From: an uncultured delta proteobacterium
GTDB taxonomy: Bacteria > Desulfobacterota > Binatia > Binatales > Binataceae
Direction of reading: 5' to 3'
Assembly (NCBI GenBank): GCA_963711565.1
Contig: CAVQEQ010000001.1
Coordinates: 1,216,001-1,280,000, forward strand
DNA: 64,000 bases
Shown here: one piece after another, positions 30,681 to 44,510 of the stretch
Position numbering within the stretch: the first letter of the stretch is position 1
How the letters are laid out: every line of letters begins with the position of its first letter
The notes under the pieces: generated by a model
What the model saw: the letters and a program-made list of their open reading frames with translations, nothing else
Told to the model about the DNA's origin: nothing
Databases searched by the model: none
Position numbers and translations under genes: made by a program

Positions 30681-30772
30681 GGAGAGGTGGCCGAGCCCGG
30701 TTTAAGGCGCACGCCTGGAACGCGTGTAGACTCGAAAGGGTCTCGGGGGTTCGAATCCCCCCCTCTCCGCCA
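30681..30772 (+). tRNA. tRNA-Ser(GGA)
   Basis: GGAGAGG acceptor stem, anticodon stem CACGC-CTGGAAC-GCGTG, long variable arm, GGTTCGAATCC, encoded CCA. Confidence 0.97.
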
Positions 30773-30885
30773 CCCAGTCCGCGATTTTCCTGTTCTCCGC
30801 GGGAAAATCGAAAATGGTCTGCATGTTCGAGCACTTTCTTCCGCCAAAAGGGAACTGGAGAAGCTCAGAATCCACCGTTGTGGCG

Positions 30886-30905
30886 CCGCTCATAGTTGGA
30901 TCTAA
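30886..30905 (+). repeat. Left copy of 20-bp direct repeat
   Basis: CCGCTCATAGTTGGATCTAA versus CCGCTCTTAGTTGGATCTAA at 43908-43927. Confidence 0.8.
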
Positions 30906-31239
30906 ATACCGCAGATGATCGGATCAGCCCTCCGGCCGTGTCAGCCGGACCGATCCTCTGTAGGTCATTAGCACCGCTTACCTTCCGATGTACATAAAAG
31001 AACGGGCCAGCGCATTGAAGCACCAGCCCGCCGCCGACTGGAAAAGGGGGGCAAACCCAGCCAGCGCCCCCCTTCTACCAAATGTTCCGACGAAGCGTCC
31101 ACCGTTTCCCTAAGAGCTTCACTGAGAGTGGCATTCGCACTCGCAAGGCTCCGATGGATGGTGTATCAGGCTCAATGTCTGGGCCGATTCGCAGCTAGAT
31201 CGCAAAGAACGCCATAGGCGATATGCGCCGCCCTGATCC

Positions 31240-31584
31240 TCACTGGCGCGAAAGGACCAGGTACACGTAGCGCTCGGTGCATCCCAGCCGCGCGGCGATC
31301 TCACCGGCGGCGAGCTGCTCGCGGTTTAGTCTCACAATCTGCTCGTTCAGTGGCACCAATCGCTTAGGCAAGGTGACCGAACATTCTCCAAACTCCGCGC
31401 AGACCTTTCGCGCGATCTCAGCGTCACCGATCTTCTCGGCGAATCGCAAGAAGCCTGGCGAGTCAGGGGCTGGCGCGTAAAATCTCCGACCGCCGAATAT
31501 CTCTATCAGGCGGGCAGCGTCAACCTCGCCCAGTCGTTTGATCAGCGCGGCTCGGGAAACAGTACCATCACCATCGATCGACAT
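31240..31584 (-). CDS. Mor/C-family transcription activator
   Basis: LGEVDAARLIEIFGGRRFYAP...VCAEFGECSVTLP...IAARLGCTERYVYLVL; GGAGG RBS. Confidence 0.8.
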   Translation of the reverse strand: MSIDGDGTVSRAALIKRLGEVDAARLIEIFGGRRFYAPAPDSPGFLRFAEKIGDAEIARKVCAEFGECSVTLPKRLVPLNEQIVRLNREQLAAGEIAARLGCTERYVYLVLSRQ

Positions 31585-31608
31585 TCCTTCCTCCTCCCCG
31601 GCCCCTCT

Positions 31609-32628
31609 CTATGATCTGAAGTTCAGCCCGCGCGCTTCGATCTCGGTGGTGAAACCGGCAGAGCGGGACAGCTTATGGCGCGCCGACTGGATCAAGTAAT
31701 TGCCGTCGTAGGTTCCCCAGCCATCGAGCGTCACGATCGCCCCGCCGGTCATCGTCACATTGCCGGGAATTTCCAGCGTCGCCGTCGCCTGGAGCATGTT
31801 GCGCCGATGCAGCTCCGCGGCTGCCTTCAGCGCGGCCTGCTGGCCGTTCTCGCAGCGGCGTATCAACTTGATGGTATCGCCGGTGGGAACGGCCGGTGAA
31901 GCCTCGGCGGTCGCGCTTATCAGCGCCTTGGTGTCGGGGTCGAAATAATTAATCTGCGCCGCCTTATAGATGAGGTGCGTTTTCGCCTTGAAGTTGAAAC
32001 TCAGTACGTCGCCGCGATGCAGGATGCCGGTAGCCGGGCGCTGCTCCAGCGCCGGCCGCGAATAGAATACCATCTGCGTGCCGCGCATCGTAAACTCGTA
32101 GTTGTGTTCTCTCGCGATCCGATGTAGGAACCCAAGGTCCGATTCCTGATTCTGCCGAAGGGCCATGAAACTCACGTCTGGGTTGACGGCCTCACCGCTG
32201 ACCGAGAATCCGTGCGCGGTCGCGATGGTCCGCGCCGCTTGAAGGAGCGTTTGACCATCGTAAGCTGTGGACTTCGGGGTGCGTATCGCGGGCGTGATAT
32301 ATGCCGCGATGCATCGCAGGTGCACTGCATCGGGCGCGCCCTTAAGCTCGACTTCATCGACCTGAAAAGATGGGCACGGCGCCAATCTCTCATTACGGTA
32401 GCCCATCGAGACATCAACCAGATCGCCGCGCTGCGGAAACCACGGCCCCTGCCATCGCTTATCGCGATCCTCAAGCTCGATTTCCAAGTCAGGCGCCGCG
32501 CCGCCGGCGTGCGACGTATAGATGATCGAGAGCACCATCTTTTCGATCGCGCCGGTAATCCCTACGCCTCGATAGCTGACTGTCCAGGCGGGCGCGCGGA
32601 CCGCGTATGTAGTGACGCCTGCCATCAT
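31609..32628 (-). CDS. Contractile tail baseplate hub, P2 gpD / Mu gp44 family
   Basis: LEIELEDRDKRW...FQVDEVE...QNQESDLGFLHRIAREHNY...GNYLIQSARHKLSRSAGFTTEIE. Confidence 0.88.
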   Translation of the reverse strand: MMAGVTTYAVRAPAWTVSYRGVGITGAIEKMVLSIIYTSHAGGAAPDLEIELEDRDKRWQGPWFPQRGDLVDVSMGYRNERLAPCPSFQVDEVELKGAPDAVHLRCIAAYITPAIRTPKSTAYDGQTLLQAARTIATAHGFSVSGEAVNPDVSFMALRQNQESDLGFLHRIAREHNYEFTMRGTQMVFYSRPALEQRPATGILHRGDVLSFNFKAKTHLIYKAAQINYFDPDTKALISATAEASPAVPTGDTIKLIRRCENGQQAALKAAAELHRRNMLQATATLEIPGNVTMTGGAIVTLDGWGTYDGNYLIQSARHKLSRSAGFTTEIEARGLNFRS

Positions 32629-34604
32629 TCAAGATCGGTTCGACTCTTTTCAGCGAGTCGCCGCTCTACCGCTTTCACAAGTTCATAGCGATGCTTTTCA
32701 AACGCCGCCACAACCATTTTCTCAAGCGCCGAAGTATCCGATCCGACTGGAGCATTGATCGTAATCGGGGCGTTGATGATGATTCCGCCGCTAGCGCCAG
32801 GCACGCCCGCGGCCATCGCGCCGCCCGCGCCCGCCGCGACGATAGTCGTGCTCGCGATCGCGGCGGCCGCGGCCGTCCGCCGTATCGCGGCGATCACCGG
32901 CGAAGGCCGGATATGCTCAGCAACCGTTTCCGCAATTGTGATGTGCTCGCCGAGATGGCTCAGCGGGCCGACTTTGGGCGGCGAATGCCCCTCGAAGTAG
33001 CCCAGGATTCCGCTGCCGATTTTCTCGCACGCGGCCTTGATCGAATCCCAATGCTTATAAATCTCGACGCCGATTAGTCCGAACGGCCCCGCGATTCCCA
33101 TCAGCACCGCTTCGCCAACGGTTTTGGCCCAGCCCATCGTCCAGTTGCCGACGCTGGTGAAGATACTCATCACGCCCGACCACAGACCGGAAAAGAAAGA
33201 CTTGATTCCCGACCAATGCTCGTAAATTTCGTAGCCGGCGACCGCGAGTGCAGCCGCGCCGACAACAACCAATCCCATCGGGCTGATCATCGCCCCCAAA
33301 ATCGTTGGGACGGCCTTCAAAATCGTCGGAACATAGCTCAGCGCCTTCATCGCGTTGCCGATACCGATGGTCGCCATGCCGAACGTCGAGAGCGCGGACG
33401 CTGCGCCGCTGAGGCCCACCCCGGCAACCGATAAACCGATAACCAGACCCTTGGTGGCCCACGAATATTTGTCGCTCGCCGCGGTCGCGCCCTGGATCAA
33501 AGTGGTCAGCTCTCCAAATTTGGTCGAAAACCACGGCAGCGCCGGCGACGCCATCGAGTCGTAGAGGTTGTCGAGATTCTGATGCATCTTATCGAGCTGA
33601 TCGGCCGCGTCGCCCGTTGCCGTCGTGAAACCAATGCCCAGCGCGCCAGCCGCACTCGCGCCTCTGCGTGCGGCTGCGGTAACCTTGTCCAGGCTGTCCA
33701 GATATTTGATCAGTCCGCCCGGATCGCCGATGCCCATCTCCTTCAGCGCTTCGATCTTCTCCATCGAGGGCATGGCCGCGAGGTTTTCGCGTAGCTGTGT
33801 CAGTCCGCCGATAATTCCTTTTTGCCAATCGACGCCGCTTTTACCGCTGTCAACCAGATCCTTAATCATCGAGGCGAACCTGATCGCGCCCCGTCCGCCG
33901 CCGCCGAACTGCTGGCTGGCTTCGCCGGCCAGTGCGAGCAACTCCGAAAATGAAGTATGGGTTTCCGCAGCCGTACCGCCCAACTGCCCTACCGCCTGGG
34001 CCAATTGCTGTGTGCTTTCTTTTCCAACGTTGAACTGCGTCGTCATTTTGAAAAATTGATCGCCCGCAGTCTGTGCATCGACGCCGAAATTGGTAGACGC
34101 AGCACCAAACAAGTTCGCCGCCGCCGCACCATCGACGCCGAACCTGGTGAGCATCGCCGCCGAGTCCTCAGCGGCCATGGCTTTGTTCGTATCCTGGAAG
34201 ATCGCGCGCATCCGCGTGAAGCCGGAGACCCACTCCTCGGCCGTGGCGCCCGCATGCGTACCTGAAAAAGCGACGGCATGTTCCTTCAGCTTCGCGAGTT
34301 CTCCACCGGCGAGGCCCGTCATCGCGGCCGTAGTCGCGAGCGATTTCTGCATCGCAAATGCGGGCTCGCTGATCGCGTCGCTCAGCTCGTGCAGATGGTC
34401 CGCGCCGTCCTTCATCAGAGCCGCGTCGAGCGAGATCCGCTCGCCGAACCTGGTCAGACCCTCCCCTGCCGCATCGATCTTGCCGGCAAACTCCTGAACT
34501 TTATCTCCGAGGTTCAGGAATCCGCCGCCGAACGAGCTGAGCTTGTCGCTCAGCTGATCGATCGCCTTGAACTCGACGCCATAGGTGATCATTTTGTCGG
34601 CCAT
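32625..34604 (-). CDS. Phage tail tape measure protein
   Basis: 659 aa, Ala/Gly-rich helical; AIDQLS N-terminus; IYEHWSGIKSFFSGLW and IYKHWDSIK repeats; HSPPKVGPL; IIINAPITINA. Confidence 0.88.
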   Translation of the reverse strand: MADKMITYGVEFKAIDQLSDKLSSFGGGFLNLGDKVQEFAGKIDAAGEGLTRFGERISLDAALMKDGADHLHELSDAISEPAFAMQKSLATTAAMTGLAGGELAKLKEHAVAFSGTHAGATAEEWVSGFTRMRAIFQDTNKAMAAEDSAAMLTRFGVDGAAAANLFGAASTNFGVDAQTAGDQFFKMTTQFNVGKESTQQLAQAVGQLGGTAAETHTSFSELLALAGEASQQFGGGGRGAIRFASMIKDLVDSGKSGVDWQKGIIGGLTQLRENLAAMPSMEKIEALKEMGIGDPGGLIKYLDSLDKVTAAARRGASAAGALGIGFTTATGDAADQLDKMHQNLDNLYDSMASPALPWFSTKFGELTTLIQGATAASDKYSWATKGLVIGLSVAGVGLSGAASALSTFGMATIGIGNAMKALSYVPTILKAVPTILGAMISPMGLVVVGAAALAVAGYEIYEHWSGIKSFFSGLWSGVMSIFTSVGNWTMGWAKTVGEAVLMGIAGPFGLIGVEIYKHWDSIKAACEKIGSGILGYFEGHSPPKVGPLSHLGEHITIAETVAEHIRPSPVIAAIRRTAAAAAIASTTIVAAGAGGAMAAGVPGASGGIIINAPITINAPVGSDTSALEKMVVAAFEKHRYELVKAVERRLAEKSRTDLE

Positions 34605-34617
34605 CGGACTTTGACTC

Positions 34618-34908
34618 CTATCGGATCGCGTCCTTGCGGAACTCTTCGCGCATCGCGTGGAGCTGACGCGCCAACTCCGCGATCTCCTCGTCAGTCGGCA
34701 GACGCGACATCAGCCCATGCATTCCCTCTCGAAACACCTGAGCGTGGACCGCCTCAACTTCCGGCGAAAACTCCATCTCTCCGATCGCCTCGATCGTTCC
34801 GAGGATAAGATTCATCGGCCGGCGAAAGCCCGACTCGACGCGCGCCGCCATCTCGTCCATAACCTCGGCGAGCGGCCCATGATTTTTCTTTTTTCCCGGC
34901 TTCCCCAC
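34618..34908 (-). CDS. Hypothetical protein upstream of the tape measure gene
   Basis: GTG start after GAGG; 96 aa, helical. Confidence 0.55.
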   Translation of the reverse strand: MGKPGKKKNHGPLAEVMDEMAARVESGFRRPMNLILGTIEAIGEMEFSPEVEAVHAQVFREGMHGLMSRLPTDEEIAELARQLHAMREEFRKDAIR

Positions 34909-35142
34909 CCCTCACCTCGTCCTAGCCGTGATTCACGGCCACAGAGCGCGCCGCAAGCGCGGCGATCGCTATTCCTGAGAGTCCTTCAAACAAAGCGCGC
35001 GCGCTTTGCTGGCGGCCCGTGCCGCCCCGTTTCGTCGGCGCGGCGACCTCACACCCGTCGAAGCCGTTAGTAACGGGCACAGCGCCCGTCGCAAGCGCGG
35101 CGCGAGCCATCCGCGCCGCGAGTCTCCCTAAAGAAAATAAGG

Positions 35143-35344
35143 TGCTGGCGGCGCGTGCGACTACGGGAGGAGTTGTCCCGAAGCCGCCAGCCGCCCAAGG
35201 CGATGCGGTGATATGAGTCCGCACGCCGCCAGCGAGTCGAATGTGAGGAAATGCTGGCGGCGCGGGCGACTTTGGAGGAGTAGTCCAAAGTCCATCCGCC
35301 GCCCAAGGCGATGCAGTGACACCTCCGCATGCCGCCAGCGAGTC
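35143..35344 (-). ncRNA. Candidate tandem structured RNA (two ~95-nt units)
   Basis: Direct repeats at 35143-35238 and 35252-35344, each closed by a GCTGGCGGC/GCCGCCAGC stem with a covarying inner hairpin. Confidence 0.6.
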
Positions 35345-35567
35345 TAAAAACAGATGCGCGCGCCGCCGGCGAACCGGAACGTCGGACGGCGCGCTCAGCG
35401 CGCCGCGACCTTTCGACGCGCGCAAGATTGGGATGCCGGCGGGAAGATGAGATGCGCAGCGCCGACGGCATTGCACCATGCGCCACGTATCGCGAGGCGG
35501 AGAACCTACTACTAGAACCCCCCCCGCATCCCGCCGGCAAGCAAATCATTTTTTTGCGGCGTTCCGA

Positions 35568-35975
35568 CTACGGCAGTTCCAGAATGACCAGGCCCGTTTG
35601 CGTATCCGGCGTGCAGCTCGCGCTCGCCGTGATGAAGCTGTACGGACCGCTCGGAACGATCGAATCGTGAACGTCCCAACTCTTCGATGCGCCTGCCGCC
35701 AATAAATAGCCCTGGCCGAACACCGCCGCAGTGCCGCGAAACTGAATGGTCACAGCGCTCGCGCACTGGTTCTGAATCTCCAGATGCTCCACGAATTGAG
35801 GCTGCGAAAGCGACGAATTAACTGAGACGGCGGTCGCGCTGGCCGCGATCGGCGTGTACACGCCAGTCGTCAGCGCAGTCGGATTTGCGAAAGCAAATGC
35901 TTGAGCTGCCGAGAGCAGCATCGCCGCTACTACTGCGAAAACTGTTTTCCTCATCCTCATCCCCATCATCCTCAC
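35568..35975 (-). CDS. Secreted beta-rich hypothetical protein
   Basis: Signal peptide MRKTVFAVVAAMLLSAAQAFA; LEIQNQC...GYLLAAGAS; two Cys. Confidence 0.75.
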   Translation of the reverse strand: MRMMGMRMRKTVFAVVAAMLLSAAQAFAFANPTALTTGVYTPIAASATAVSVNSSLSQPQFVEHLEIQNQCASAVTIQFRGTAAVFGQGYLLAAGASKSWDVHDSIVPSGPYSFITASASCTPDTQTGLVILELP

Positions 35976-36014
35976 TTTATTGCCGCCGATTTTTCTGGCG
36001 GAGTTTTCAGACCG

Positions 36015-36500
36015 TCAAACTTTGCGACCCTCGCGATCGTCGCGTTCCGGGTAGGGCGGCACCATTCGTTCCAGGAGCTGCATGACATAGAGCGCTCCGT
36101 CGAGAAGCCGATCGTACATCTCGCCGTCGTCGCTATTAGTGTCGCAGTCCTTCAGTGCGGAGATGGCTGCGTCTCGAAGTTCGAGATCCGAAGCGCTTTC
36201 CGCAAACTTGGGATCGGCGTCATAGGCGGCCTTGTGCGCGCGATCAACTTCCTGATGCGATAGAGATAGTCCCGGTTTACCCACACTCGCCCGCGCGGTC
36301 TCCCCGCCAGACTGTCGAGCGAGCGCCGCGGCAAATGCGCGACGGCCTATGCCGAAAGACCGCGCTACGGCCAATTCATCTCGCGTCAAGCCGTGGGTAT
36401 TTTCTGATCGCGAGAGGCGCGCGACCCTCGTCGCTAGCTGTTCGGGCGGGATTCCGAAGGTCGCCGCGATCTTCTTTTGGTCCGCGGTAAGAGTACTCAT
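36015..36500 (-). CDS. Protein with two Mu gpI/Z scaffold-like C-terminal motifs
   Basis: AGGAG RBS before ATG 36500 (in-frame upstream ATG at 36611); LTADQKKIAATFGIPPEQL and LTRDELAVARSFGIGRRAF. Confidence 0.6.
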   Translation of the reverse strand: MSTLTADQKKIAATFGIPPEQLATRVARLSRSENTHGLTRDELAVARSFGIGRRAFAAALARQSGGETARASVGKPGLSLSHQEVDRAHKAAYDADPKFAESASDLELRDAAISALKDCDTNSDDGEMYDRLLDGALYVMQLLERMVPPYPERDDREGRKV

Positions 36501-36628
36501 CAAATTCTCCTGATTGCGGCTGCCCCGAGCCGTCCTCGTTTCATGGGCTGTCAGCGGACTGAGGACTCCGTCGTAACAGGTCTCGATCTCATCTGGCCGA
36601 AATTCCCTCATCTCTCAAAATTCCGCGC

Positions 36629-37249
36629 TTACCACTGGCGGTGATGCGTGCCCTCGCCGCGCTCGCGCCGAGCGTCGTTATCCCGTTCGTGCTGAATCGC
36701 CGCGGCTTCCCGTTTTTCGAGCCCTTCGATGTGCGCGTTGGTCAGGATGCCGGGAACCTCTCTGCGCGTGACTTCGCGGTCGCCCAGCTTCACGGAAGAG
36801 ACCCGAATAGCGCTGATCCGATCTCCATCTCGGAAAAACTTCTTGAGCCCGTCGATCTCCTCTGCGGTCCAACTCGCCTGCTGAAATACAGGATGAGTTC
36901 GATACAACTCTTCCTGGAAGCTGGGCGCCTTTTCCGGGATGCTCAGTCGCCGGCAAGCCTCTTCCATCTCGAAGACCTTGCTCCGAAGGGTGTTTAGATC
37001 GGCACCGTTTCGGATCAGATCGTCGATCATCTTTGAGTGCGAAGCCATGTTGCCCACGGCGGCGCGTTCCCGCTCAGAAGTCGGAAACTTCAGCGCCGCG
37101 ATGCGCGCCCGCGCCGCTTTGACGATCTCGATCGGATCGCGCGCTTGTCGGAGCCGCTCAGTTGCTTCATCGCAATCCGTCGCCATCGCCTTGACCAGAG
37201 TTCCGTTCTCCGGAGCCTGAGCCTCGTTGTTCTCTTCCGCCGCCTTCAT
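36629..37249 (-). CDS. Hypothetical protein
   Basis: 206 aa; ATGA-coupled to the gemA-like gene; GAGGTG RBS. Confidence 0.75.
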   Translation of the reverse strand: MKAAEENNEAQAPENGTLVKAMATDCDEATERLRQARDPIEIVKAARARIAALKFPTSERERAAVGNMASHSKMIDDLIRNGADLNTLRSKVFEMEEACRRLSIPEKAPSFQEELYRTHPVFQQASWTAEEIDGLKKFFRDGDRISAIRVSSVKLGDREVTRREVPGILTNAHIEGLEKREAAAIQHERDNDARRERGEGTHHRQW

Positions 37250-38115
37250 AGGTCACCTCTCGTCGAATTTTTATTCCGCGGGCCGCGAACCGCGCCCGGA
37301 GTTTCTGTCTCGTCCGCGTCGGCCTTCAACGCCGAGCGCATGCCTTCTGCGATCGTCCGATCCACTTCCGCGACGCGCCCGACGAGCCAAAACAGCTCGC
37401 CCCGAACCTTCTTAAAGTCCCATTTCAAAAGAGCTTGCCGGGCTCTCTCCCCAAACTCGCGCACCAGGTCCGCGACTTGCGCCGCGATCTGCGCGTCGGC
37501 GAAATTCTGCGCGTCGAGAAGCACCAGGACGTTGCGGATTCCCTCGATCGGAGTCCCGGCTTCACCGACCAGGCGCATCGCGTCGAATACGCCGGCCTTC
37601 ACGATCGCGCTCGCGGGGATCGCGACCGCGGCCGGCTGGTTCTCCGCGATCGGGTGTTTGATCAGCCACTTTTTGCGCCAGCCCTTGAGCGCTTCGATCA
37701 CCTTGTTCGCATCAGTCGCGTCGAGCCACTGAAGCCTCTCGACGCCGGTGATTTTCCGCACGAATTTTTGCAGCCATCGTCCGGTCGAATTGGCCTTGAC
37801 CGCGCCGACGCGCTCCAGCTCATATGCACAAACGAGCAATTTCTTGAGATGCTGCGCGCCCGGAGATTTCGGATCGATGCGAATCCAATCGTCCTCGCGA
37901 GCGCGCGGCGGTGCCGAGTTAAATCCCTTGCGCGCAAATTCGTCGAGCAGCGCGCGTCGCTCCGCCTCTGTCATGTTCGCCGACGAATCGGTGCGCCCTT
38001 TCGTGATACGCTCGATCATCATGCGATACGCTTCATCGTCCAGGCAGAGCTGTTTTTTCGCGAGATGAATCTTCGCGAGTTCAGCCTGTCGGATTTTCTG
38101 CGGCGGCGTTCTCAT
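37246..38115 (-). CDS. gemA: Mu GemA/gp16 (DUF1018) family protein with C-terminal extension
   Basis: LAKIHLAKKQLCLDDEAYRMMIERIT...SSANMTEAER...GVERLQWL...KVIEALKGW. Confidence 0.85.
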   Translation of the reverse strand: MRTPPQKIRQAELAKIHLAKKQLCLDDEAYRMMIERITKGRTDSSANMTEAERRALLDEFARKGFNSAPPRAREDDWIRIDPKSPGAQHLKKLLVCAYELERVGAVKANSTGRWLQKFVRKITGVERLQWLDATDANKVIEALKGWRKKWLIKHPIAENQPAAVAIPASAIVKAGVFDAMRLVGEAGTPIEGIRNVLVLLDAQNFADAQIAAQVADLVREFGERARQALLKWDFKKVRGELFWLVGRVAEVDRTIAEGMRSALKADADETETPGAVRGPRNKNSTRGDL

Positions 38116-38363
38116 CACGGTTCTGAATCCTTGACCTGCTTGATCGTCGCTCCCGTCACTTCCCGCTCCGCCAGCCAAGCCAACACGCGCGCGCGCGAAT
38201 ATCGGACCACTGCTTTCGAGACCTGGAAGTAAGGCGGCCCCGATCCCTCGCGCCGCATACGCTTGAATGTTTCGTCCGCAACCCCTATGAGCCGCGCGCA
38301 CTCTTCCTGGGAAATGATCTCATCATTGAGCGATAGCGCCGGTCTGTTTGTTTCGTCCGACAT
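38115..38363 (-). CDS. AlpA/excisionase-like HTH protein
   Basis: EECARLIGVADETFKRMRREGSGPPYFQVSKAVVRYSRARVLAWL. Confidence 0.85.
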   Translation of the reverse strand: MSDETNRPALSLNDEIISQEECARLIGVADETFKRMRREGSGPPYFQVSKAVVRYSRARVLAWLAEREVTGATIKQVKDSEP

Positions 38364-38891
38364 TTAGCTCTTTGCCGTTTTCCGCGTTCGCGCGGCTACC
38401 CTCGGGCATGTCGTTTCCAGCAGCGCCAATGCGATCGATGCGCGTAGAATCAATTCCCCGCAAAGCTCCGATGATGGGACTTCGTCCTCGCCCACATGCC
38501 ACGTTAAGGCAGCACAACCCTCGATATATCGCGATCCGAGAGCGGTGGTCGGTGCGTTCCCAATCTCATAGAGGTTACGACTACAGTTTTCGTGAACTGA
38601 GAAGACCATTTCTTCTAAGAGCCGGCGCAGCTTGCTAAAAGCGTCGGTGGTATTCTGAGATGCCTTTCCGATCGAAATCGTGATCTGATCGCGCGCTGGG
38701 CACCATTGGTCTATGTGCCGAAAATGCCTCGCCGATCTGAGCACCGGCCATGCCGTCGCCCAAACGTCATCGTATTTGGCGCGAGCGACGATGAACGCTT
38801 GGAGCGCGGACCGCACTTTGCCGATAGTCGCCGGATCTAAAATGCTTTCCGGTTTGAAGAGCGGGGTTGTTTTTTGCTCGGCTTTTTTCAC
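38364..38891 (-). CDS. Hypothetical protein
   Basis: GTGA overlap with the upstream gene; stop abuts the next ATG. Confidence 0.6.
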   Translation of the reverse strand: MKKAEQKTTPLFKPESILDPATIGKVRSALQAFIVARAKYDDVWATAWPVLRSARHFRHIDQWCPARDQITISIGKASQNTTDAFSKLRRLLEEMVFSVHENCSRNLYEIGNAPTTALGSRYIEGCAALTWHVGEDEVPSSELCGELILRASIALALLETTCPRVAARTRKTAKS

Positions 38892-39319
38892 GGCTGTCCT
38901 CCTCTCTGACGTTCCACGAACGCGCCCAATCGAGCGAGCCGTTTGTCGCATGAGACAATTTGTGCCGCGCACTCCGCGCGCAGATCGCGCAGCGCGGAGA
39001 TTTCTAAATTCGGGTCAAGCGTGAGCCCCTTCCTGCCAACCCTCGGAGCAAAAGGTCCGGTGTTGCGGATCAGCGCATAGACGCTGCCATCGCAGCCGCG
39101 CGCATGCTCGGCAACTCTCAGATAACCCGCGCGCGTCAAGTCCTGGAGGAAGCGCTCAGCCGCCTTGCGCCCCGCGATCTCGGCGACTTGAATCAGATCG
39201 CGAATGTGGAACTGCCGAAGGATGCGCATCGCGCGCCACATTCGTTCGCGCGCGGCGCTCGGCGCGCCGGCGAGATTCACGCCGGCGCCGCGTCCACGTT
39301 TATTTTTGACGGTTTCCAT
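38888..39319 (-). CDS. Transposable-phage early winged-helix protein
   Basis: ARERMWRAMRILRQF...LTRAGYLR...YALIRNTGPFAP, a motif set I associate with the gene after MuB in Mu/B3-like phages. Confidence 0.75.
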   Translation of the reverse strand: METVKNKRGRGAGVNLAGAPSAARERMWRAMRILRQFHIRDLIQVAEIAGRKAAERFLQDLTRAGYLRVAEHARGCDGSVYALIRNTGPFAPRVGRKGLTLDPNLEISALRDLRAECAAQIVSCDKRLARLGAFVERQRGGQP

Positions 39320-40059
39320 CAGGCCGCCGCCGCCGCGAGATCAGCGCGCCGGTTGACTGGCGGCGGCGTCGAATCGTCCATCGGATAATCCGCCAGCGCG
39401 ATCTGCTTGAGCGCCCGCCTGCGGCAGAACGCTTCCACCGCCGCCAGCTCCTTGACGAACAGTCCGGCCGATCCGCGCGTCTTTTTGTGAAGCGCCTCGA
39501 TCAGGTCATCGCCGAGCCGCACTTCGGCCAGCTCGGTCGCGAGCAGCCTGCTATCGTCGAGCGTGGAACTCTTAAATTCTACTTCGCGGAGTATCCGCCG
39601 CTCGATTTGCTCACGCCGCTTTATTTTTCCGCGAAATTCCGCGGTACCGCCAATGAGGACAAGCGGAATCGCCGTCATGTCGTGAATGGCGCGCAGAGTC
39701 TCGACGAGATCCTTTTTCTCTACGATCCCGTCGGCTTCATCGACATAAATCGGCCGCGGCAGATCCGTCAGGCCGCGCACGATTGTCTCGTACATCGGCC
39801 GCAGTTCCCGCGATGGCTTTTCGCCCATCTCGCGGCAAATGTCGCTGAGCATCCAGCGCGGATTCCACAAATGAAGTGCCGTCAGAAAGATCGCGCCCTG
39901 CTTCAGAGCCTGATGCGCAGCGATGCAGGTCTTTCCTCTTCCGCTTCCGCTGCTATGAATCAGGATGATGCCCGGTAGCGATGGATCGCGCGCGATCGCC
40001 GCGGCGATGGCACCGATTCCCGCCTTGTAATTACTCGTCGCACAGATTTTTACCCGCAT
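39319..40059 (-). CDS. MuB-like AAA+ transposition ATPase
   Basis: GSGRGKT Walker A, IYVDEAD Walker B, LRAIHDMTAIPLVLIG. Confidence 0.9.
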   Translation of the reverse strand: MRVKICATSNYKAGIGAIAAAIARDPSLPGIILIHSSGSGRGKTCIAAHQALKQGAIFLTALHLWNPRWMLSDICREMGEKPSRELRPMYETIVRGLTDLPRPIYVDEADGIVEKKDLVETLRAIHDMTAIPLVLIGGTAEFRGKIKRREQIERRILREVEFKSSTLDDSRLLATELAEVRLGDDLIEALHKKTRGSAGLFVKELAAVEAFCRRRALKQIALADYPMDDSTPPPVNRRADLAAAAA

Positions 40060-42113
40060 TTTTTGACCTCCTCGGTCCGTTCGTTACTTGAAGCCGGGAC
40101 GCGCTCAGCCCACCGCATCGCGCGAAAGTCGCTCGTCATTTCGTAGCCCAAAGCCCAACTGTCGGGCGTATTTTTGTAATGCGCGAGAAAGCGCTGTTCA
40201 CGCAAAGTCAACGCCCGGTGCTCGCGCCGAATCGCGATCCAGAGCTGATCACATTCGTCTTCGCTCAACTGCAATTCTCGGATTTCACGCCGCCGCTCTA
40301 TTTCCTGTAGCGCGATATTTCCATCGCGCAGTACCTCGTCGCTATGCGGTTCCGGTTCGGCCGGCGCGTCGAGCGCTTGCAGCGCCGCCGCCGCCGCCGC
40401 GATACCCGGTGAGCGATGCGGCAATGCAGTGATTTCAGTTCCGGGCGCGGGAAGCTTAACGGCGTCGCGCGCAGCGCACGATTCGATAATGTCGCGGTAT
40501 GTGGTTTCAGGCCGGTGCTTTCGCTTGAGCGCGCGCAGCTCGTCCATGCCCTCGCGCATCTTCCTGTTCTGATCCTGCTTGGCCGCTATCGCCATCACCT
40601 GCCGGTCGAGGCCGGCGGACTCAGGATTGATCGCGACGCAGATAAACTTCGTGCCGTCGCCGCTGAAGATGATCAGCTTGCCCTGGTCGCGCGTGCGCAC
40701 GTACTGAACGCCCTGTTCGATATACGCTTCGAGTGCGTTGCCCTCGTCCCAATAGAATGCGTTATCGACACGGATACCCTTCTTGCCGACCGTCGCGGTG
40801 CCATCTTCGCCCAGCAGCACGTCGAGCAGCCGCTCGTCGGCCACGCGCCGAACCTGTCCGCGCCGATCCGCCTCGGCAAAAACCTCGTTGGGAGTCCGCC
40901 CGCCGAGCCCCGAATGCTTTTTGTTGCCGTAAACATGCTCCAGCCACTTGTCGAGCAGGTCTTGCAGCTCGGGCGCGGTCAGCTCGATTCGATAGAGCCG
41001 CCGCATATTGCGCCGCGCGCCGCGGCCGGGCGCATAGCCGGCGCGCTCGCGGATTTTCGACGCCTCTTTCACATCGTGGCCGATGTAGCCGGGCAGGTTG
41101 ACGAAAAAAGAGTGGAGCACCGTGCCGATTCCGCGCTCGATGTGTGGTTTTCGCCATCCCGAATAAGCTGGCGTCGCCGGCCACGCGATCCCGAGCCGCG
41201 CGATTCCGCGCTGCGTGCGCGCCGAGACGAACCCGGCGCCGTTGTCGTGCGAAATCTCGTCGGGAACGCCGCGCAGCGAAATCCCTTTGATCACCATCTC
41301 CGCAACCGCGTTAGAAGACTCAACCGGCGCCAGATGGGCGGTAATCACGCGCGAGCAAACGTCGATCTGCCCCATCACGTGCAGCCTGCCGCCCGGCGTC
41401 TCGACCGTGCCGAGCACATAAGAGTCGGCCGGCGTGCCGTCTATCTCCCAAAGCTGATTTACCCGCGTGATATTCGCGTCGGCATCGCCGATCGCGAGCA
41501 TGTGGCGGTTTTTCCAGCCGGCAGGGTCTTCGATCCGCACATACAGCGAATGGTTCTGCTGCTTCCAATCGCGGATGAACTTCTGCACCGCGTCGATGCT
41601 CGGAATCCGATCGTTTGGAAACCGAGCCTCGATTCCTTCGAGCACGAATTGCGCGTTAACCTTCGGGTTGTGCGCGATCTGGGCGATCACGAACTCACGC
41701 ATCAAGGAATTGCGCGCGATGATCGAGTCGCCGCGCCGCTTGCCATAGCCCGGCACCAGGCCGGCAATGCCGGACTTCTCGAATCGGCGCCAAGCCTTTT
41801 GCAGCGTCGGCCATTCGATGCTCTGCCAGAGTTCGCGCGCGTTGGCACTCACTTCGATCTGACCGTGATTAAAGCGCTCGCAGAAATCCTTGCCCGCAGC
41901 GTTCAGCGCCTTGCACGATCGCTTTCTGAACGCACGGAACGCCGCGACGATCTCCGCCATCGCCAGCGCGCGCGCGGCAATCTTCGTCGGAATACCATCG
42001 AGCGGATCGAGAGGAGCGAGCGGCGCGGCAACAACCGGCAGCGTGACAGCGCGCGCGTCGTCCGACAGCGCCGGCCGTTCCACGAGCTGCACGCTGCGCG
42101 CCGCCTCACTCAT
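40050..42113 (-). CDS. MuA-like DDE transposase
   Basis: WEIDGTPAD, ISHDNGAGF, KPHIER catalytic triad; YGNKKHSGLGGRTP; TVGKKGIRVDNAFY. Confidence 0.93.
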   Translation of the reverse strand: MSEAARSVQLVERPALSDDARAVTLPVVAAPLAPLDPLDGIPTKIAARALAMAEIVAAFRAFRKRSCKALNAAGKDFCERFNHGQIEVSANARELWQSIEWPTLQKAWRRFEKSGIAGLVPGYGKRRGDSIIARNSLMREFVIAQIAHNPKVNAQFVLEGIEARFPNDRIPSIDAVQKFIRDWKQQNHSLYVRIEDPAGWKNRHMLAIGDADANITRVNQLWEIDGTPADSYVLGTVETPGGRLHVMGQIDVCSRVITAHLAPVESSNAVAEMVIKGISLRGVPDEISHDNGAGFVSARTQRGIARLGIAWPATPAYSGWRKPHIERGIGTVLHSFFVNLPGYIGHDVKEASKIRERAGYAPGRGARRNMRRLYRIELTAPELQDLLDKWLEHVYGNKKHSGLGGRTPNEVFAEADRRGQVRRVADERLLDVLLGEDGTATVGKKGIRVDNAFYWDEGNALEAYIEQGVQYVRTRDQGKLIIFSGDGTKFICVAINPESAGLDRQVMAIAAKQDQNRKMREGMDELRALKRKHRPETTYRDIIESCAARDAVKLPAPGTEITALPHRSPGIAAAAAALQALDAPAEPEPHSDEVLRDGNIALQEIERRREIRELQLSEDECDQLWIAIRREHRALTLREQRFLAHYKNTPDSWALGYEMTSDFRAMRWAERVPASSNERTEEVKKCG

Positions 42114-42427
42114 ACGGCCGCCTCGCGCGCCGGTTCTTTCAACACCTTCCGCGCTCGCCGTTCAGCGCGGAGCCGTTCGCGCTCGGGCCACAATTCCTCC
42201 GGCGTTCGGCCGATCGCGGCGGCGACTATGCGTTCTGCGATCGGCCAAGGCCGGTCGAAAACATGACTGAGTGTGCTCGGATGCCAGCCGCGAGATTTTG
42301 CTAGAGCTGCGAGAGAAGTGCCGCGCCGGCGAAGTTCAGCTAGAATGGCGAAGCGATCTATTCCGCTTGACGCGGAAACCGCGAGGCGCTTAGATCGCTC
42401 TGCTCGCTTTGGTCGATGCCGTTCCAT
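42110..42427 (-). CDS. ner: Ner/Nlp-family DNA-binding protein
   Basis: ILAELRRRGTSLAALAKSRG...WPIAERIVAAAIGRTPEELWPER. Confidence 0.9.
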   Translation of the reverse strand: MERHRPKRAERSKRLAVSASSGIDRFAILAELRRRGTSLAALAKSRGWHPSTLSHVFDRPWPIAERIVAAAIGRTPEELWPERERLRAERRARKVLKEPAREAAV

Positions 42428-42467
42428 TGGCAGAATATATTCGTCTGAAATCAGGAGATTGTCAACT

Positions 42468-42974
42468 ATGAAGAGTAGACAAGCTCCCTCATCGAAAGAT
42501 CGGGCCGCGCCTTCCGATCCCATGTCCGACCGAATCGAATATTGCTTTCGCGTGGCCGGCGGCGTGCGCGCGGTTTCTAAAGCCACCGATCTGGTTGAAT
42601 CCCTGCTCTACCGTTACCGGAAACCGGGCGCGTCAAGGCGAACCGACGTATTGTCGCTGATCGCCAAGGCGGCCAATGTGAGCGAGGCGTGGCTTCTAAC
42701 CGGCATCGAGACCGATCCATCGAAGAGCACTTCCGCACGGCCGAAATATCATTCCCTGGCGGATTTGCCCTATCGCATGTCGGCTGAATATGAGATGGAC
42801 GCCGCCGCCCGACGTGAGTTGATCTTTGAGCGAGAGGGCGGCGCCGAGTTCAAGGACGCAACCCTTCGAGCGCTCGAAGAAGAGCTGCACCGTCTCAAAG
42901 GAAGGATCGAGGTTTTGGAATCGCAATTGGCCGCCAGCAGACCGCGCGGCGGAAAAAAAGCTGCACGCGCGTAA
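42468..42974 (+). CDS. XRE-family repressor, divergent from ner
   Basis: GGVRAVSKATDL...LSLIAKAANVSEAWLLTG; C-terminal coiled coil; AGGAG RBS. Confidence 0.82.
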   Translation: MKSRQAPSSKDRAAPSDPMSDRIEYCFRVAGGVRAVSKATDLVESLLYRYRKPGASRRTDVLSLIAKAANVSEAWLLTGIETDPSKSTSARPKYHSLADLPYRMSAEYEMDAAARRELIFEREGGAEFKDATLRALEEELHRLKGRIEVLESQLAASRPRGGKKAARA

Positions 42975-42989
42975 AAGAGGGTTCACGAA

Positions 42990-43328
42990 ATGGGGGCAAA
43001 AGCGTTCGCTCGACTATTGGTACTGATCGGCTTTGTCTCAATGGGCTGCTCGCACGGCAGCTTGCCGCACGATCGCCTCAACGGAACCTGGACCAGCGAC
43101 ATTATGACCATCACGATCGATTTCCCCGCCCACAAATATTCGGGCGTTGCGATGGGCGAGCCGTTTTCGCACTACCTGGACCTGGTGAGCGAAAACGCCA
43201 ACGTCGTGGTCTTCAAAGAGAGCGACGCAACCATCGTCTGCCAGATTCAGGACGACGGCAGCATTATGATCACCAAGCAGGGCTCCGAAGGCGGAATCCC
43301 TATGATCCTGCACCGCGCCAAAGACTAA
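42990..43328 (+). CDS. Small lipoprotein (cargo)
   Basis: Lipobox SMGC; LNGTWTS beta-barrel-like sequence. Confidence 0.75.
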   Translation: MGAKAFARLLVLIGFVSMGCSHGSLPHDRLNGTWTSDIMTITIDFPAHKYSGVAMGEPFSHYLDLVSENANVVVFKESDATIVCQIQDDGSIMITKQGSEGGIPMILHRAKD

Positions 43329-43336
43329 CCGGAAAA

Positions 43337-43749
43337 ATCAAAGTTCCCTTCCGAAACTTTGATCATTGTTCGCCTAGGGAACAATGATCCCGAACCCCGC
43401 CAGAATACCGGCCCGGCATTTTGATTTTCGCGATCACAGTCGTCCTCGACGACTATGATTTTAGCCGCGCCAAGGCGCGCCTAGACCAGGCGTTCGCGTA
43501 TGTCGCGGACGACGGCATGCGAAATCAAAGTCGTGCTCGACGATTTTGATCTTTCCGAGATCAAACTCGCGGACGACGAGTTTGATCGGCCGGCCCCTTT
43601 TCAAGATCGCTAGAGACGATCTTGAAATCACCCTCGCGCTCGACGAGGGTGATTTCCTCCGGTTACGTCGCAGGCTCATGTCGTAGGCGACGACATGATA
43701 AGTGTCGTGGCCCCGCGACACTTCCATCATGTTCCCGAAGGGAACATGA
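43337..43749 (+). repeat. Array of ~13 hairpins, mostly 27-nt ATCA-N19-TGAT units
   Basis: Units start at 43337, 43362, 43399, 43433, 43524, 43560, 43600 and 43627; shorter hairpins at 43462, 43491, 43676, 43700 and 43727. Confidence 0.9.
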
Positions 43750-43907
43750 GAAGTCATAAGCCCCACTAATTTATCGAGCCGCGCAGACGATCCGGTTTTC
43801 AGGGTTGTGAGCGCTCATTGGCCCTTCGCGACGAGGCGCGGGCGCTTTTCGGTCAAAAGTGCCCTAACTATCCGATTTTGCTAGCGAATCATATCAAATG
43901 GAAAAAA

Positions 43908-43927
43908 CCGCTCTTAGTTGGATCTAA
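43908..43927 (+). repeat. Right copy of 20-bp direct repeat
   Basis: CCGCTCTTAGTTGGATCTAA; part of the imperfect palindrome TAGTTGGA-TCTAAT-TCCTAACTA. Confidence 0.8.
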
Positions 43928-44510
43928 TTCCTAACTAGGGATGCGTTAGCGCGACACGGCGCGTCGTGGCGCTATCAGTTTCCAGACTGGCCCGATTAGA
44001 CGAATCCTACTCCGAACTTAGCCCCTGCCCCACGGCTTTGCGATGAGCGCTCGCGTCAGAAAACCCCGTCCAGACGCGGGTTTCGATGCGTCCGTCGTCC
44101 CATGATGTCCCCCCCAGTCCCACGAAATCCCGCGAATTGCCTCGGAAGAGTTTAGATCCAACCATGAGCGGTGTCACACCACCGTTACCAGGCGATTTAC
44201 TTTGGATTCTCTCCTTCGAGAACAGAGCCGGTGCTCTTCGCATCACTGTCCGCCAAAAACGTCTTCGCCAGGACATCGCCTTCAAGCGAGGGAAATCCAT
44301 ACGAGGCTTCTTGAGTCCGCCCGACCTGGGATTCGGTAATCGCCGTGCAGCTTGAAGCGGCCCGTCTGTGGCGAATTCCAATTCATGCGGCAATTGGGGT
44401 CTGAAACAATCCGTTTGCAGTGTTGCCGCCAGCGATATGAGTGAAGGTTTGCGATTGGAGGAGGAACTGCGCCGTTGCGTTGAGCCGGCGTGGCTCCGGA
44501 GCTGCTGCGT

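Follow-up and report, generated by a model that had tools for sequence, protein, structure and literature searches.

The window analysed here is a stretch of 64,000 nucleotides from the genome of an uncultured delta proteobacterium of the family Binataceae (GenBank assembly GCA_963711565.1, contig CAVQEQ010000001.1, positions 1,216,001 to 1,280,000). It contains a compact Mu-like transposable element of 13,300 bp (30879..44178, minus strand), a candidate phage satellite that combines a transposition module with genes related to virion assembly. Coordinates are positions in the window; G000 designates the host genome, C-numbers its contigs and other G-numbers other genomes.

Boundaries and mobility of the element

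The element is bounded by inverted terminal repeats of 28 bp with the TG...CA motif, which are 89% complementary. The right repeat, on the side of the mor gene (30879..30906), is also the end of the copy in G135; the left repeat lies on the repressor side (44151..44178). A target site duplication of 7 bp flanks them (30872..30878 and 44179..44185, plus strand). The end site recurs further inside (43907..43928), where it is likely a transposase-binding site, and the end motif has three matches in the whole genome, every one inside the element. A host tRNA-Ser(GGA) gene (30681..30772, plus strand) is the likely targeting landmark, and the element begins 106 bp past its 3′ end.

Soil metagenomic contigs of one study (runs X1 and X4) join position 30871 to 44179 and skip 13,307 bp, i.e., the element plus one copy of the duplication. 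These empty-site contigs confirm the ends and show that the site is unoccupied in other cells. A reading of the letters alone, here termed the sequence-only reading, had placed the element at 30879..43956. The first boundary holds; no duplication is found at 43956, which adjoins the inner end-site copy, and the true end is 44178. Near the left end, 43433-43656 contains a hairpin and three imperfect direct repeats of 30 bases, which may be operator or enhancer sites. Near the right end, a 75-base stretch (31002-31073) is 85% identical to G000:C4:137993-138066.

The element is intact and has recently moved. In runs X1 and X3 its right end, which differs at one of 273 bases, adjoins another flank, and the element at this second site is over 99% identical to the window copy. 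An exact match to this flank lies at G000:C1:157491-157519, about 126 bp past a tRNA-Ser(CGA) gene. The G135 copy, of 13,692 bp, shares the ends of the window copy; it has another 7-bp duplication, is inserted in the opposite orientation and lies 65 bp behind a tRNA-Ser(GGA) gene. Its description as a different locus was refined: the tRNA is of the same type and probably the orthologous gene, yet the insertion is independent.

The tRNA scan covered the window element and 22 other loci. A tRNA gene adjoins eight of these 23 compact elements or parts of elements (six Ser, one SeC and one Val, kin not being independent). In the six of the eight that have mapped ends, the element lies 11–109 bp from the tRNA 3′ end. 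Stretches of up to 120 bp past tRNA genes make up ~0.1% of the host genome. With the second site included, the distance varies from 11 to 126 bp, in either orientation. The element thus likely prefers the region behind tRNA-Ser genes, whether by targeting or by selection. The 7-bp duplication is found in two of 11 mapped elements, those of the window and G135, and the other nine have 5 bp. The duplication is 5 bp in Mu and 6 bp in B3 (PMC8705779); the window element differs from both in its 7 bp and in its bias to tRNA 3′ flanks.

Gene content

Genes were called by profile searches (Pfam and PHROGs) of the element's open reading frames; except for the two plus-strand genes described below, they lie on the minus strand. 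The early region begins with a Ner-like repressor (42110..42586; PF13693, phrog_769), whose true start is probably further downstream in frame. It is followed by a MuA-like DDE transposase of 687 amino acids (40050..42113; rve and Mu-transpos_C, phrog_310), in which D225/D290/E326 are invariant in a six-sequence alignment, and a MuB-like AAA ATPase of 246 amino acids (39319..40059; AAA_22, phrog_296). Next are a winged-helix regulator of 143 amino acids (38888..39319; phrog_2030), a variable 175-amino-acid frame (38364..38891), which has no family match and is 32% identical to the same slot in G135, and an AlpA/Xis-like helix-turn-helix (HTH) protein of 82 amino acids (38115..38363; phrog_66, E 6.5e-9). 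A GemA-family protein (37246..38115; PF06252, E 1.7e-24), with a revised start at 38115 and a length of 289 amino acids, precedes a 206-amino-acid protein lacking a family match (36629..37249; 93% in G135, 53% in G048). The coupling of these genes described in the sequence-only reading is borne out, as the junctions from ner to the 206-amino-acid frame are −10 to 0 bp, i.e., the genes overlap or abut.

Downstream are the genes related to virion assembly. A scaffold-like protein (36015..36500) lies in a frame open to 36611; its revised start is probably 36500, which gives about 161 amino acids. It is followed by a 133-amino-acid protein with a hydrophobic N-terminus (35568..35969), which resembles unnamed phage proteins and whose slot is occupied by a capsid cement gene in the G029 element. 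A three-helix protein of 96 amino acids (34618..34908; model pLDDT 89) takes the slot of the tail chaperone before a tail tape-measure protein (TMP) of 659 amino acids (32625..34604; phrog_28, E 1.5e-25). The TMP gene overlaps by 4 bp that of a gpD-like baseplate hub of 339 amino acids (31609..32628; phrog_52, E 4.6e-79). Last is a Mor-like transcription activator of 114 amino acids (31240..31584; phrog_836, E 1e-12), which is 32% identical to the Mor of a resident virion cluster described below. All nine families named in the sequence-only reading (Ner, DDE transposase, MuB, winged helix, AlpA-like, GemA, TMP, gpD and Mor) were thus recovered by Pfam or PHROGs profiles.

Two genes are on the plus strand. 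One, divergent from ner, is a likely c-type repressor with an uncertain start (42522..42974). It is called from its position and an HTH-like sequence recognized by eye, and is 37% identical to the same-slot open reading frame of the full prophage in G114. The other is a lipoprotein-like cargo frame of 112 amino acids that has no family match (42990..43328) and is 95–100% identical over 74–77 amino acids in the elements of G135, G048 and G029.

A role of the 96-amino-acid protein as a canonical tail chaperone gained no support, there being no hhalign match to the canonical chaperone and no viral fold match; hhalign links its family to the pre-TMP frames of other compact elements. Between this gene and that of the 133-amino-acid protein, upstream of the TMP operon, is a non-coding region of ~650 bases (34915..35560, minus strand) with a predicted RNA hairpin array. 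Its folding z-score is −5.7 against 20 shuffles, it is conserved with frame-breaking indels in five elements, and two-sided changes occur at 14 of 68 consensus pairs among four sequences, two of which are nearly identical. Rfam has no match for the region. The hairpin array is possibly a regulatory RNA or an antiterminator.

The absence of capsid, portal, terminase, sheath, tube, fibre and lysis genes was reproduced, since none has a PHROGs match in the element. When 31 proteins of the host virion cluster were compared with the element by tblastn, matches were confined to gpD, Mor and the C-terminus of a TMP, apart from three short and weak ones at E 0.002–0.016 that were taken as noise. Profile searches found neither an integrase nor conjugation genes among the element's frames, and no TniQ/TnsD-type Pfam match. 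A primase/helicase or Rep protein was not recognized among these frames, three of which have no assignment.

The scaffold-like protein

The scaffold-like protein displays two motifs of the C-terminal part of the Mu protease/scaffold and, at its end, a helical domain. The domain is present in 25 proteins, all from compact elements, of which they cover 21 of 23 (eight were seeds); it was found in no resident or full virion cluster among 1,961 proteins searched. Four elements have it as a fusion, placed after a Mu protease I domain. Against a wide library, a profile of the scaffold family matched 207 clusters, and of 30 long matches picked from these, 25 are Mu-type protease I proteins, three of which match at the C-terminal scaffold motif of the profile. 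As Mu-type protease I proteins are matched by this family profile at their C-termini, the scaffold motif proposed from the sequence alone gains indirect support. A narrow hidden Markov model of the motif built from full clusters did not match the window copy itself. In 200 other genomes across the phylum the family profile gave no convincing match; one weak match contains stops.

The compact-element family in Binataceae

A Mu-transposase profile has matches in 28 of 164 other genomes of the family. This tally and those of the capsid gene below include up to seven unpublished genomes, on which no element-level claim rests. After removal of two rows from unpublished genomes and merging of two split genes, 34 loci remained and all were inspected. 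Of these, 21 are compact elements with a TMP and without capsid, portal or TerL genes, the TMP being interrupted in two; two are compact and lack a TMP, three are full-size transposable prophages (G114:C22, G090:C207 and G156:C281), six are contig fragments and two resemble other transposons. The prophage of G156:C281 (L091) has an HK97-type capsid and a portal-MuF fusion, and transcription of its head genes runs away from the transposase.

The 11 elements whose ends were mapped measure 11.6–15.0 kb, with a median of 13.3 kb, despite very divergent transposases; the assignment in G074 is weak and one end in G011 is a manual reading. Ends were not mapped for G123, G047, G102, G163, G138, G103, G041:C17, G135:C12 and G000:C2. 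The two elements lacking a TMP are 9.8 and 10.9 kb.

The compact gene order of the window copy recurs in G135, G048 and G004, at independent insertion sites. The TMP is of full length (589–888 amino acids, 21 rows) and conserved along its length, as are full-phage TMPs. The idea of shorter tails than those of full phages gained no support, TMP lengths being alike. Of the 23 compact elements, six have an intact gpD, and in most it is partial or lost; it was therefore rejected as a core gene and is regarded as accessory, with the TMP as the core retained virion gene. Relatives carry additional genes: a canonical tail chaperone in three, TerS or gp26 without TerL (two full, several fragments) and protease I. 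A second compact Mu element of the host (G000:C2, L003:6350-19055), near a contig end, has a different order: a TerS fragment, a protease I N-terminus or fragment, gpD and then TMP. Its right end is beyond the contig, and an IS21-like element adjoins.

Selection and phylogeny

Ratios of nonsynonymous to synonymous substitution rates (dN/dS), computed pairwise with our own Nei-Gojobori script, are 0.24 for TMP, 0.15 for gpD, 0.09 for GemA, 0.29 for the scaffold and 0.32 for the transposase against G135. Values of 0.22 for the scaffold in a second comparison and, against G048, of 0.24 for TMP and 0.17 for the 133-amino-acid protein were also obtained. Six pairs give 0.23–0.30 for TMP; values for gpD are 0.15–0.22. 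TMP and gpD, the genes for which the sequence-only reading proposed this comparison, are under purifying selection.

Over a contiguous 7.3 kb, identity with the G135 copy is 88%; barring re-import of modules, the two copies therefore diverged while already compact. The window TMP falls in a clade of six compact elements from four genera (support 98/88) and the window transposase in a clade of six compact elements (support 98/97). The element gpD groups with full-phage-type hubs (94/90); it is 45% identical to the resident hub and 52% to that of G090. The nearest transposases in databases are those of Pseudoalteromonas phage HS6 (34%) and Ralstonia phage RS138 (33%).

The resident virion cluster and candidate helpers

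The host genome has a Mu-like virion cluster at ~1523.5-1565 kb of G000:C4 (L004-L006), with head, contractile-tail and lysis genes. It comprises repressor, Mor, endolysin, TerS, TerL, portal, protease/scaffold, cement, capsid, connector, sheath, tube, chaperone, gpU, gpX, gpD, baseplate and fibre genes. No transposase, MuB or Ner was found in it. About 16 kb of cargo, including an insertion sequence, lies between portal and protease. A Terminase_6N profile has no match in the host genome, although PHROGs identifies the resident TerL. This cluster is the sole source of capsid, terminase and tail found in the host genome.

The resident capsid gene occurs in all 46 other genomes of the genus and in 120 of 164 of the family, nearly always singly; outside the family, one of 214 genomes from the same class has it. 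The cluster adjoins murF-purE in several genomes, and its dN/dS values of 0.03–0.21 are like those of host genes. On genomic evidence, it is domesticated and vertically inherited. Its conservation in element-free genomes points to a function of its own, and it is a candidate for a new gene transfer agent (GTA) or tail machine. In G077:C2 (L097) the cluster is deleted from within the tube gene to gpJ, so that the hub region is gone and the head genes are intact.

The TMP slot of the resident cluster holds an RNA-binding gene and a 281-amino-acid Arg/Ser-rich frame, only the C-terminus of which matches TMP. The first of these, which on inspection looks like an RRM-type gene, is located at L005:3098-3379, and most resident clusters, like the G114 full prophage, have an equivalent in the TMP slot. 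A full TMP is present in none of 26 resident-type clusters, where the longest open stretch is 137–498 codons and several have no room for one, and in none of the 31 IMG/VR clusters that contain both flanking genes (from 80 loci, none of which had a transposase match). A search for the TMP family (phrog_28) detected, in G000, the two compact elements alone, and none in four well-assembled relatives. The element thus carries a piece that the resident cluster lacks. There are caveats to a resident helper: some clusters retain a half-length TMP, the element gpD groups with full-phage-type hubs, and no capsid match was obtained in two genomes that have compact elements. In addition, the transposase-bearing prophage of G090 has a similar degenerate frame of 433 codons, so that short rulers may work. 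The capsid gene is found in 19 of 21 compact-element genomes against 102 of 144 others (Fisher p 0.066), a comparison confounded by completeness and kinship and not used.

Full prophages with a full TMP also exist in the family. The helper may therefore be the domesticated cluster in the host chromosome, full Mu-like phages entering from outside, or both. For the complete Mu-like helper that the sequence-only reading proposed to look for in the host, the resident cluster is the candidate present; it lacks a transposase and a full TMP.

TMP-family genes are found in other settings as well. In G010:C7 (L035), G018:C53 (L056) and G081:C39 (L058) they lie in separate baseplate or head-gene clusters, which suggests split, multi-locus virion systems in some genera. 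Small non-Mu elements with TerL carry the same TMP family (L049, L051, L052, L053, L045, L038 and L054). An integrase is present in L051 and a D5-like primase in L052; the group is possibly a second satellite class that supplies a tape measure. As these integrase-type elements share the TMP family, several parasites here may converge on supplying the ruler.

Comparison with known systems

The element shares with phages Mu, D3112 and B3 the repressor/Ner switch, DDE transposase, MuB-type ATPase, GemA, Mor, TG...CA ends and target duplication. It differs from Mu-like phages, which are 36–39 kb, in its size of 13.3 kb and in having no head, tail-tube, sheath or lysis genes. Engineered mini-Mu is packaged by a helper. 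Like engineered mini-Mu and mini-D3112 (PMC8705779), the element is short, Mu-ended and transposing; it differs in belonging to a natural, diversified family that is under selection and has its own virion-assembly genes.

P4-like satellites, as well as phage-inducible chromosomal islands (PICIs), have site-specific integrases and replicate with a primase/helicase. The element is like them in being about one-third of the helper's size, in its AlpA-like regulator, in having scaffold-type or TerS genes but not the full virion set, and in frequently tRNA-linked sites. It is unlike them in having a DDE transposase and in lying at a variable distance and in either orientation behind tRNA genes. Tn7-like targeted transposons insert at a fixed distance and orientation and have TniQ/TnsD, none of which applies to the element.

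The PICI-like elements (PLEs) of Vibrio cholerae have an integrase and their own replication functions, and parasitize a lytic phage. The present element differs, as it transposes and no integrase was found. PLEs, satellites of phage ICP1, encode a tail assembly chaperone, a TMP and in some cases a hub, which are incorporated in chimeric tails; PLE transfer falls by 96–99.9% without the TMP, and TMP genes are also present in some capsid-forming PICIs (PMC12987554). A satellite-encoded TMP and an optional hub are likewise found in the element; chimeric tails are shown for PLEs and are proposed by analogy for the element. The PLE hub is 41% identical to that of its helper (PMC12987554), and the element hub 45–52% to those of the candidate helpers. 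PLEs have a tail chaperone, whereas the element copy has no recognizable one and a canonical chaperone occurs in three relatives.

The resident cluster resembles RcGTA and BaGTA in being a vertically inherited head-tail cluster with no replication or integration genes. It is unlike them in its Mu derivation, its contractile tail and its TMP, which is short and of low complexity or is missing.

Interpretation and alternative explanations

The element is an intact, mobile mini-Mu of a conserved family and probably (at about 0.75) a phage satellite. By analogy with Mu, it would be kept repressed by the repressor/Ner switch until the late functions of a helper become available, and then be amplified by replicative transposition with its own MuA/MuB-type enzymes and packaged from the chromosome by a headful mechanism. 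The particles would have a Mu-type head and a contractile tail, formed mostly from helper genes. The motif of the scaffold variant and the narrow size range of the elements suggest that this protein may steer head assembly, perhaps to about one-third size, and the PLE precedent suggests that the element TMP and hub are built into chimeric tails. A more specific version is put forward tentatively and is rather less likely than otherwise: that the satellite parasitizes the domesticated GTA-like Mu cluster, which Mor would switch on, with the scaffold resizing the head, the TMP and hub supplied by the element and the vehicle thereby made infectious again.

Several observations weigh against a packaged satellite. 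The Walker A motif of MuB, SSGSGRGKT, is slightly off consensus; neither TerS nor a recognizable tail chaperone was found in the window copy; and models of the 96-amino-acid and scaffold proteins, compared with viral structures, gave nothing at E ≤ 0.001. Pattern scans of IMG/VR with TMP and GemA, which are of low sensitivity, detected no relatives and hence lend no viral-fraction support. The two compact elements of 23 that lack a TMP, the two with an interrupted one and the losses of gpD indicate that these genes are dispensable for persistence. Compact elements are also not monophyletic family-wide, as transposases and TMPs of full prophages nest among them, which implies gene exchange with helpers or several origins. 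Lastly, deletion derivatives and remnants exist (G029:C8, G029:C22 and a partial gpD in G048).

This last point, with the presence of full-size transposable prophages in the family and the clustering of the element gpD with full-phage-type hubs, would fit a decayed full-length Mu-like prophage. That origin is very improbable and already largely refuted. The same compact order is found in G135, with its 88% identity over 7.3 kb, and in G048 and G004; the element-specific helical domain is absent from full clusters; and the element has recently moved to a second site. The sequence-only reading had taken full-length closest relatives, together with unique deletion junctions or relaxed selection, as signs of decay; the nearest TMP and transposase clades are all compact and selection is purifying. 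A non-packaged transposon, moving between cells by other routes, in which TMP, hub and scaffold act as dominant-negative decoys that poison the assembly of Mu-like phages, is unlikely, although some features favour it: the mosaic turnover of TMP, gpD and transposase modules (dS 0.67, 0.33 and 0.47, against 0–0.1 in near-identical neighbours) fits an arms race, the scaffold bears a foreign C-terminal domain and the window copy has no TerS. Decoys are less readily reconciled with a TMP of full length that is conserved throughout, with a narrow element size range that suggests a packaging limit, or with the retention of Mor, Ner and GemA in an element with no conjugation genes; moreover, defence and hijacking can coexist, as in PLEs. 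The element might also be an accessory module of a multi-locus GTA-like system, supplying the missing TMP to particles that carry host DNA with no preference for the element. The lack of a full TMP in all 26 resident-type clusters and the restriction of phrog_28 matches in G000 to the two compact elements are what such a module predicts. It is nevertheless quite improbable, since the element is patchy, polymorphic in populations and mobile, whereas the cluster is near-universal and conserved even in genomes with no full TMP; this is the pattern of a parasite and not of a fixed accessory.

Significance

A literature search, for which most subscription papers were out of reach, located nothing relevant on transposable or Mu-like satellites, GTA satellites or Binatota prophages. 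To our knowledge, the satellite families known or found in print integrate by recombinases. If the satellite interpretation is correct, a satellite family that multiplies by Mu-type transposition would represent a new class, and tail remodelling, so far shown for the Vibrio PLEs, would extend to an unrelated lineage. Loose tRNA-Ser targeting and the 7-bp duplication would be new behaviours for a MuA/MuB pair. The resident cluster poses a puzzle of its own, as its sheath, tube and baseplate genes are strongly selected despite a short or absent tape measure. If a satellite, the element would also transfer the host DNA attached to its ends, as Mu does, from cell to cell within a soil family that is abundant and uncultured.

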